This document shows, piece by piece, positions 1-300 of a stretch of DNA of 10,239 nucleotides. Origin of the DNA: a virus. Lineage: Duplodnaviria; Heunggongvirae; Uroviricota; Caudoviricetes. The notes beneath the pieces were generated by a model. The model saw nothing but the letters and a program-made list of their open reading frames with translations, made no database searches and had not been told where the DNA came from. Both the position numbers and the translations under genes were made by a program. Location: the IMG/VR virus record IMGVR_UViG_2711768060_000003. One strand, written 5' to 3'. Positions within the stretch are counted from its first letter, which is position 1, and each line of letters opens with the position of its first letter.

Positions 1-300
1 ATGATGGAAAAAACAGAAAACAAACCGATTGTAATTGGTGCTGATGCTGCTCCGTTTAAGTTTGAGTTGTCTCAACTGGTGGAGATGCGCATCAGTGATG
101 AATGGGGTGAGGTTAAAGCCCGCGCGCAGTATGCGGATGGCGAAAACCAGTACTTAATCCACTACAAAGCAGCTGATGGTCGCGCCACGACAGAGTGGTT
201 TGGTGAGTCAATGCTGGAAGCAACAGAAGATGATCGCCATCCGGGCTGTCCGGTATTTGCCGGTATGAAATTACCGGAAGGCGCAGTCGTGACTGAATAA
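1..300 (+). CDS. Hypothetical small acidic protein (99 aa), function unknown; may be 5'-truncated by the window edge
   Basis: ORF starts with ATG ATG at position 1 and ends TAA 298-300. Same strand as the late operon, directly upstream of the AT-rich region and terS. No family recognised, no obvious transmembrane segment. Confidence 0.45.
   Translation: MMEKTENKPIVIGADAAPFKFELSQLVEMRISDEWGEVKARAQYADGENQYLIHYKAADGRATTEWFGESMLEATEDDRHPGCPVFAGMKLPEGAVVTE

Follow-up and report, generated by a model that had tools for sequence, protein, structure and literature searches.

The 10,239-nucleotide (nt) stretch of DNA analyzed here, referred to as the window, comes from the Caudoviricetes record IMGVR_UViG_2711768060_000003 of IMG/VR and begins with a small open reading frame (ORF) at positions 1..300, located between lysis genes and the DNA packaging region. 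This ORF is very probably a complete gene whose product is a soluble, acidic ~11-kDa protein, composed of an SH3-like barrel and a 24-residue D-x-H-P-G-C-P tail and distantly related to YccV/HspQ. Within a large, uncurated phage and prophage family that includes L33 of phage P27 (PHROG 1935/8618), the gene represents the enterobacterial long form, and it is called the L33-family gene below. The best explanation as a whole is that a YccV/HspQ-like barrel is expressed late and has a host component as its target, a reading that we rate at about 0.45. The gene and its two parts are as follows.

Window 1..300, plus strand: L33-family gene, 99 codons and TAA at 298-300 (MMEKTENKP...AVVTE, then stop)
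Window 55..225, plus strand, codons 19-75: conserved barrel core, placed by conserved columns and AlphaFold2 (AF2) strands
Window 226..297, plus strand, codons 76-99: C-terminal extension EDDRHPGCPVFAGMKLPEGAVVTE, enterobacterial long form only

Predicted fold and remote similarity to HspQ

The AF2 models of the protein reached a predicted local distance difference test (pLDDT) score of 87.8 with an enterobacterial alignment and 91.0 with a broader alignment (five models, 89-91). Both contain six strands, at residues 25-29, 35-42, 50-56, 62-68, 72-74, and 80-84, with a short helix between strands 4 and 5, and the predicted fold is an SH3-like small beta-barrel with a core of about residues 19-75. 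The strand-helix pattern agrees with the description of the YccV-like domain (PMC7647994). In a Foldseek search of the PDB, E. coli HspQ (5ycq) ranked first for both models (E 3.6e-3 and 1.7e-3), with a TM-score of 0.54-0.56 on the query and 0.68-0.70 on the target and with E values about 8 and 20 times better than those of the second match. Generic KOW, PWWP, Tudor, SH3, and CAP-Gly folds ranked after it. A fold search of BFVD returned only uncharacterized small phage proteins.

Profile comparison with hhalign points in the same direction. The broad family profile matched an HspQ profile of 18 sequences (the HspQ sequence used is identical to chain 5ycq_A) with a probability of 91.9% and a score of 40.2 over 74 columns. 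Reversed profiles scored 12.8-12.9, 100 column shuffles 11.0 ± 2.5 (maximum 22.7), and 100 block shuffles 12.8 ± 2.8 (maximum 24.0), placing the HspQ match about 10 standard deviations above the shuffled controls. Seven other small barrels used as negative controls (CspA, Hfq, NusG-KOW, spectrin SH3, L24, SMN Tudor, and CarD-like) scored 9.9-14.5, compared with 30.8 for HspQ as a single sequence. In the alignment, the phage tail motif DDRHPGCP (DxHPxxP) pairs with the invariant DEHPEQP of HspQ (H81-P85). The alignment stops at HspQ residue 89, and the phage tail GMKLPEGAVVTE is unrelated and acidic. Because two independent lines agree, the profile-profile match and the top PDB fold match, the L33 family is placed as a distant, phage-borne branch or relative of the YccV/HspQ domain (PF08755).

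HspQ and the phage protein are both small acidic SH3-like barrels of similar size, and both carry the D-x-H-P-x-x-P motif past the barrel. They share only about 20% identity, with no Pfam-level match. HspQ is encoded by a chromosomal heat-shock gene and acts as a specificity-enhancing factor of Lon and an inhibitor of ClpS, whereas the phage protein is encoded by a late-operon gene. Because the basic C-terminal tail with Lys96 is missing, the phage protein would not be a simple copy of HspQ; an HspQ orthologue was ruled out by the absence of this tail and of a ~15-residue insertion, and the phage protein belongs at most to a distant branch of the superfamily.

Family membership and protein properties

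The protein matches PHROG 1935 with an E value of 1.4e-60 (residues 2-99 on profile positions 1-98 of 116), and its core also matches phrog_8618; neither phrog_1935 nor phrog_8618 has a recorded function. It shares 99% amino acid identity with L33 of phage P27, and the nucleotide identity is 95% over window positions 1-350. The first database search retrieved 109 homologues, all from Enterobacterales and all named 'hypothetical'. A profile of 47 homologues, searched against 1.84 billion representatives, retrieved 738 proteins at E≤1e-3 (counted at 50% identity) and 176 at E≤1e-10, and a search with a broader alignment gave 1471 clusters at 90% identity. Among the 120 matches listed of these 1471 clusters, there is no Pfam domain or functional name. 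Scans of the protein against Pfam, NCBIfam, and PADLOC (Pfam and PADLOC at E≤1) gave no match, nor did a PDB sequence search; with the family profile, the PDB search returned YdhK/DUF1541 alone (E 0.022). A search of the available literature found neither a paper on the gene nor expression data for it.

The original prediction, made from the sequence of the window, described a small, acidic, non-membrane protein of no recognizable family. The first part stands. The product of the L33-family gene has a mass of 11.05 kDa, an isoelectric point (pI) of 4.6, and a net charge of -9, and its highest 19-residue Kyte-Doolittle mean is 0.91, which indicates that it lacks a transmembrane segment. No N-terminal signal or lipobox was found, and the sole conserved cysteine is at position 83. 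An o-spanin identity was ruled out, as there is no lipobox. The second part holds for the curated Pfam, NCBIfam, and PADLOC families and fails for PHROG 1935 and its 738 representatives.

The conserved core follows the motif FKFxLxQxV..S.E.G.V..RA.Y....N.Y...YKAADGRA...W..ES.L, in which E34, G36, and W66 are invariant in the conserved columns of the family alignment. The core occurs alone as proteins of 57-70 amino acids (aa) in many phages. The C-terminal extension, EDDxHPGCPV..LPEGA, is present in 18 of 147 representatives, while most match profile positions 12-70 alone; within it, P81, G82, and C83 are each at least 90% conserved. Net charge ranges from -15 to +10 across the family, with a family-core mean of -3.3.

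Some family members (P0110, P0114, P0195, P0163, P0192, and P0168) show tandem duplications or N-terminal fusion modules. The fusion partners include an Lcl_C domain, repeated unknown domains, and an acidic low-complexity linker. Some short forms carry zinc-finger-like CxxCxGxG tails.

Gene boundaries and coding evidence

The full translation of the ORF at window 1..300 is MMEKTENKPIVIGADAAPFKFELSQLVEMRISDEWGEVKARAQYADGENQYLIHYKAADGRATTEWFGESMLEATEDDRHPGCPVFAGMKLPEGAVVTE. Its ATG coincides with the first letter of the window, which had raised the possibility of an ORF truncated by the window edge or of the 3' end of a larger lysis gene. Both are now ruled out by sequence upstream of the window. 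IMG/VR contig L036, which came from an exact-match scan of viral contigs with the hairpin described below, shares 99.5% identity with window 1-7772 and extends it by 1716 nt on the 5' side; the same scans of genome and metagenome contigs returned no match. The arrangement is the same in E. coli A19 (L001, 95% identical). In both sequences, AGGAG lies 4-7 nt 5' of ATGATG, the upstream frame is closed (in A19 by a TAA 78 nt upstream), and the preceding gene is a separate 60-aa lipoprotein gene that ends 171 nt before the ORF. Because a Shine-Dalgarno site and an in-frame upstream stop are found in these near-identical relatives, the ORF is complete and not the tail of a lysis gene. Translation probably begins at window nt 4, giving 98 aa, since strain PSS-15 has ATA in place of the first ATG and RefSeq starts a 98-aa protein at the second one. 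A 147-aa protein (P0001), the nearest one to have an upstream extension, is encoded on an assembly full of frameshifts and was set aside as uninformative.

The ORF at window 1..300 is a real gene under strong purifying selection. In six copies from different prophages, third codon positions hold 3-15 of the 5-17 differences per pair, and the ratio of nonsynonymous to synonymous substitution rates (dN/dS) is 0.02-0.18, with a median of about 0.05. These values, together with a family of 738 representatives, contradict the absence of conservation that had been considered for the ORF. That the ORF is spurious, or the tail of a larger lysis gene, is hardly credible: it does touch the window edge, and a 114-aa minus-strand ORF overlaps it at 113..457, but the dN/dS values, the concentration of differences on plus-frame third positions, the Shine-Dalgarno site and closed upstream frame in near-identical contigs, the hundreds of homologues, and the confident fold prediction all speak against it.

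Genomic neighborhood

According to the original prediction, the ORF directly precedes the packaging region, in the slot that separates the lysis genes from cos/terS, and this placement is confirmed. Upstream in L036 are two holin genes, an M15 endolysin gene, and the 60-aa lipoprotein gene (phrog_7528); downstream in the window are cosQ, cosN, and a DUF1441 small terminase gene (terS) starting at 588. The features around the L33-family gene are listed below.

L036 1363-1545 and L001 about 6649-6831: 60-aa lipoprotein gene, lipobox LLVGC, phrog_7528
L036 1546-1716, directly 5' of window nt 1: non-coding spacer, 171 nt
Window 304-342, plus strand: stem-loop, starting 4 nt past the stop codon, no U tract
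Window 384-396, plus strand: cosQ-like ACGGGTCCTTTCC, from a MAFFT alignment with the joined lambda ends (NC_001416) and L003
Window about 415-426, plus strand: cosN/cohesive-end segment GGGATGCGGACG, aligning with the lambda 12-nt end GGGCGGCGACCT
Window 113..457, minus strand: 114-aa mechanical ORF, overlapping the L33-family gene, no family match
Window 363..584, plus strand: 73-aa mechanical ORF, overlapping cos, no family match
Window 588..1085, plus strand: small terminase gene (DUF1441, PHROG 141), by family matches
Window 1085..3202, plus strand: large terminase gene (terL), GpA-type

The two mechanical ORFs are probably not genes. The minus-strand ORF was rejected on the substitution pattern, which favors the plus frame of the L33-family gene, and on its lack of a family match; the plus-strand ORF was rejected on its overlap with cos and, again, the lack of a family match. 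The cosQ-like site is about 85 nt 3' of the L33-family gene. Because cosQ and cosN directly follow, the L33-family gene is the terminal gene of the right arm of the virion chromosome. When the cos region was compared with phages by a distant blastn search, none of the records retrieved had cos annotated. Prophages with different terS types differ in the cosB-like region, which extends to terS (588).

The 60-aa lipoprotein may be an o-spanin-like lysis component, and no i-spanin partner for it was evident in L036. Its gene is unannotated in the A19 RefSeq record. In A19, an extra 71-aa ORF (L001 7364-7579), absent from the window and with weak matches to phrog_25421 and phrog_3787, is located between the hairpin and cos; the slot therefore takes up additional cargo. 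Further downstream in the window, the long ORF at 4744..6984 corresponds to the fusion of a ClpP-like prohead protease and the major capsid protein annotated in A19, and such a fusion is typical of this lambdoid head-module type.

The stem-loop follows the stop codon in all copies and is stable, with a free energy of -22 to -34 kcal/mol and z-scores of -4.2 to -7.8 over five loci. It is also present at L001 7304-7346 and in L002, L003, and L029, where it is kept by differing base-pairings. An Rfam scan of window 1-1200 gave no match, and terminator scans of the window, A19, and L036 found no canonical terminator; it could be a transcript 3' stabilizer or a weak terminator. Similarity between prophages persists up to the hairpin and diverges just after it. 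The gene and its trailing hairpin move as a unit, of which the hairpin is the right edge and which in close relatives includes the lipoprotein gene.

Transcription and the moron question

The slot had also suggested an accessory gene of the moron type with a promoter of its own. Consensus scans of the window, A19, and L036 and a laxer hexamer scan found no sigma-70-like promoter above chance in the 171-nt gap (best match 8/12; shuffles average 1.7 such matches), although a consensus promoter scan cannot exclude an atypical promoter. The GC content of the gene, 0.49 (0.46 at third codon positions), is like that of its neighbors (0.49-0.58), and in distant relatives its start abuts or overlaps a spanin stop codon. 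Because no promoter of its own was found and its base composition is ordinary, the gene is not a strict moron and looks instead like an accessory late gene, placed as the final cistron on the transcript of the late lysis genes. The accessory part of the claim therefore stands: the gene behaves as dispensable cargo, with near full-length copies in 161 of 5426 complete E. coli genomes.

A true moron would be expressed from the repressed prophage through an unrecognized spacer promoter, with the hairpin terminating or stabilizing its transcript, and would confer a fitness trait on the lysogen. Such a role is distinctly unlikely. Lambda has its moron bor in this slot, a classical site for such genes, and a stable hairpin follows the stop codon. 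The spacer, with a nucleotide diversity of 0.058, is better conserved than the flanking genes at their third codon positions (0.085 and 0.141) and contains near-invariant blocks at L036 1565-1583, 1603-1621, and 1660-1678, which leaves some room for an atypical regulatory element; folding of the spacer gave no significant RNA structure (z +0.46). Against this stand the promoter scan and the base composition, the missing U tract of the hairpin, and the position of the gene on the late strand, tightly joined to late genes in other lineages.

Distribution and genomic contexts

Neighbors were counted in 80 IMG/VR loci carrying relatives at least 91% identical. The 60-aa lipoprotein gene is the upstream neighbor at a fixed 175 nt in 62 of the 80, and the downstream neighbor, 65-2258 nt away, is as follows.

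33/80 loci: Nu1-like terS
19/80 loci: DUF1441 terS
11/80 loci: P27-type HNH
4/80 loci: GpA-type terL only
13/80 loci: none within the panel used

With a fixed upstream lipoprotein gene and a variable downstream neighbor, the L33-family gene therefore counts as part of the lysis block, at its right end, and the mosaic junction is located past the hairpin.

More distant relatives occupy several contexts. In Edwardsiella, the gene is located 6 nt past the LysC o-spanin gene and before a DUF1441 terS. In Enterobacter P2-like prophages, its start overlaps the stop codon of a DUF2514 spanin gene and gpR is next, and in Enterobacter L033 a gap of 1 nt separates it from the last lysis gene, while terS is another 3.5 kb away. 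In Yersinia pseudotuberculosis and Pectobacterium, it follows spanin genes (with a 25-nt gap in Pectobacterium) and precedes a Terminase_2 terS. In HP1/P2-like phages of Yersinia, Enterobacter, and Escherichia, it is found between the terS gpM and the head-completion gene gpL; the homologue at this position is annotated as 'L33' in Escherichia ESSI2_ev040. Homologues in Burkholderia (Bcep176 gp32), a Bordetella phage, and Stenotrophomonas and Lysobacteraceae elements reside in early-region arrays of small genes.

Among complete E. coli genomes, 161 of 5426 (about 3%) carry at least 80% of window 1-345. What remains in about 100 further genomes is nt 241-341 alone, comprising the final 21 codons and the hairpin. 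The same segment remains in phages cdtI (L028 3001-3104) and phi458 (L029 3001-3104), fused out of frame to annotated orf60/Orf23, a different protein. These 3' remnants look like a recombination or deletion scar and demonstrate frequent loss of the gene.

Two further genes were recorded in loci carrying homologues. In L031 and L032 (5001-5606), at the edge of an integrated metagenomic element, a short-form homologue of 59 aa is followed after 33 nt by a gene with an Acb2_Tad1_hairpin domain (anti-CBASS/anti-Thoeris sponge). In Pectobacterium prophage L027 (1933-2418, minus strand), a gene with an AcrIF11-type ADP-ribosyltransferase domain is located between a Q-like antiterminator gene and a holin gene, which is another late-region cargo slot.

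Proposed function and alternative explanations

HspQ interacts with Lon and ClpS, and acetylation of its Lys96 switches it between the two (PMC6719616). The YccV-like domain recurs in regulators of AAA+ proteolysis (PMC7647994). In human PDIP38/POLDIP2, which binds the CLPX zinc-binding domain, and in plant ClpF, which binds ClpS1, the YccV-like barrel is the docking module (PMC7647994). PDIP38 and ClpF are multi-domain proteins, whereas the phage protein is a barrel with a short tail. Small phage proteins also provide a functional precedent. T4 PinA and T7 gp4.5 inhibit Lon, lambda CIII inhibits FtsH, and lambda RexB acts on ClpXP, all of them retuning host AAA+ proteolysis; no sequence or fold relationship to the L33 family was found, and most of them are early or lysogeny genes. 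To our knowledge, all characterized YccV-domain members regulate AAA+ proteolysis.

In the reading that we favor, the L33-family gene would probably be expressed late, on the transcript that also carries the lysis and head genes, because no promoter of its own was found. Its product would probably bind a host component rather than being part of the lysis or packaging machine. Its partners include four or more unrelated sets of holin, endolysin, and spanin and five or more types of small terminase, other phage lineages have it between gpM and gpL or in early accessory arrays, and a host-directed role is suggested because these lysis and packaging partners vary and no phage partner co-varies with the gene. 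The barrel may then dock on an AAA+ protease of the host or on its adaptor (Lon, ClpS/ClpAP, or ClpX), and proteolysis would be altered late in infection. By analogy with the proteins above, such docking is the target that we favor, and it is itself doubtful.

Several points weigh against this reading. No PDB match reached E≤1e-3 in Foldseek for either model, and the generic small barrels follow close behind 5ycq. The narrow enterobacterial profile matched HspQ with a probability of only 2%. PF08755 was not matched by the protein at E≤1 or by 52 family members at E≤10, the latter scan giving scattered single matches only. HspQ alone has the ~15-residue insertion, located between strands 2 and 3, and the basic C-terminal tail (residues 90-105) whose Lys96 controls the Lon interaction; Lys96 is beyond the aligned region and has no counterpart in the phage protein. 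Late expression is deduced from gene position alone, the protease target is pure analogy, and the gene neighborhoods contain no pointer to proteases. A lysis-related role could explain the close association with the end of the lysis cassette equally well.

Such a role would be that of a lysis accessory, a cytoplasmic modulator of lysis timing or of spanin or holin function, encoded by a last cistron co-translated with the spanins; T4 RIII and P1 LydB are models for cytoplasmic lysis modulators. The gene directly follows spanin or lipoprotein genes in many lineages, including Yersinia pseudotuberculosis, with a stop/start overlap in Enterobacter P2-like prophages and gaps of 6 nt in Edwardsiella, 1 nt in L033, and 25 nt in Pectobacterium, and the 175-nt distance to the lipoprotein gene is fixed in 62 of 80 loci while the downstream module changes. 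A specific lysis partner is nevertheless improbable, because the holins (Phage_holin_3_1, holin_8 plus 3_7, class II, and 2_3), endolysins (M15, GH108, and lysozyme), and spanins (DUF2514, DUF2570/LysC, and Rz) found alongside the gene are unrelated. HP1/P2-like phages place the gene between gpM and gpL, about 3 kb from the holin gene, and the Burkholderia, Bordetella, Stenotrophomonas, and Lysobacteraceae elements place it in early arrays. With a protein that has neither a membrane segment nor a lipobox, we regard the lysis role as unlikely. A packaging or cos factor, either a terminase helper or a protein that binds cos or DNA ends, is very unlikely. The gene is the last one before cosQ/cosN, upstream of terS in lambdoid and pac-type prophages and directly downstream of gpM in HP1/P2-like phages, and its relative YccV was originally described as a hemimethylated-DNA-binding protein. 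The downstream module varies (Nu1-like, DUF1441, P27 HNH plus terS, and Terminase_2) and is 65-2258 nt away, however, with terS at 3.5 kb in L033; in Enterobacter P2-like prophages the preceding gene is lysB rather than gpM; many family members are found in early regions; and a strongly acidic protein is a poor DNA binder. Lambda itself packages its DNA with no homologue, as a tblastn search of a phage collection including lambda gave no lambda match.

The L33-family protein might instead be another anti-defense or host-takeover protein, acting as an acidic decoy or DNA mimic or as a small-molecule or peptide sponge through the aromatic residues of the barrel. This is also an unlikely proposal. 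The net charge of -9, the pI of 4.6, and the family-core mean charge of -3.3 would suit a decoy, and conserved E34, R41, Y51, Y55, and W66, together with the fold matches to Tudor/PWWP/Agenet-type cages, fit a ligand pocket. The short homologue 33 nt upstream of the Acb2_Tad1_hairpin-domain gene, the location of non-enteric members in early accessory arrays typical of counter-defense genes, and the patchy distribution with frequent loss are consistent with it as well. Counter-defense proteins are needed early, though, so the late-operon position in Enterobacterales fits poorly; the family charge range of -15 to +10 argues against DNA mimicry as a family trait; and the link to an anti-defense gene occurs in one element type alone.

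Comparison with phages P27 and lambda

The Stx2e phage P27 carries the same gene in the same place, after the lysis genes and before the packaging genes, and the similarity includes the hairpin. In P27, the next genes are those for an HNH endonuclease and HK97-type terS/terL, whereas the window has a lambda-like cos, a DUF1441 terS, and a GpA-type terL. L33 of P27 is annotated as a 115-aa product from an upstream ATG that lacks a Shine-Dalgarno site. In lambda, bor, lambdap78, and lambdap79 occupy the same slot between the spanins and cos; bor, the classical moron, and lambdap78 are on the opposite strand. No homology to the right-arm cargo of lambda was detected in the tblastn search of the phage collection.

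Biological meaning

The L33-family gene was already known as a conserved phage gene that has been deposited many times as a 'hypothetical protein'. What is new is its classification, in which a Pfam-less family with hundreds of representatives is tied remotely but specifically to the YccV/HspQ barrel. The Shiga-toxin phage P27 carries the gene, as do about 3% of the complete E. coli genomes. The classification turns an anonymous ORF into a testable hypothesis, namely that the protein binds Lon, ClpS, or ClpX and affects the half-lives of substrates. At its broadest, and as an idea that is speculative and unlikely at present, the L33 family would be a phage branch of YccV/HspQ used by lambdoid, P2/HP1-like, and other temperate phages to retune host AAA+ proteolysis. 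If this is false, the gene is ordinary cargo of the lysis-packaging junction. If it is true, late or structural proteins may be protected, or protease-triggered abortive responses such as Lon-dependent toxin-antitoxin activation may be blocked, and the family would be a common viral tool for manipulating host proteolysis and a widespread, previously unrecognized class of viral protease modulators.

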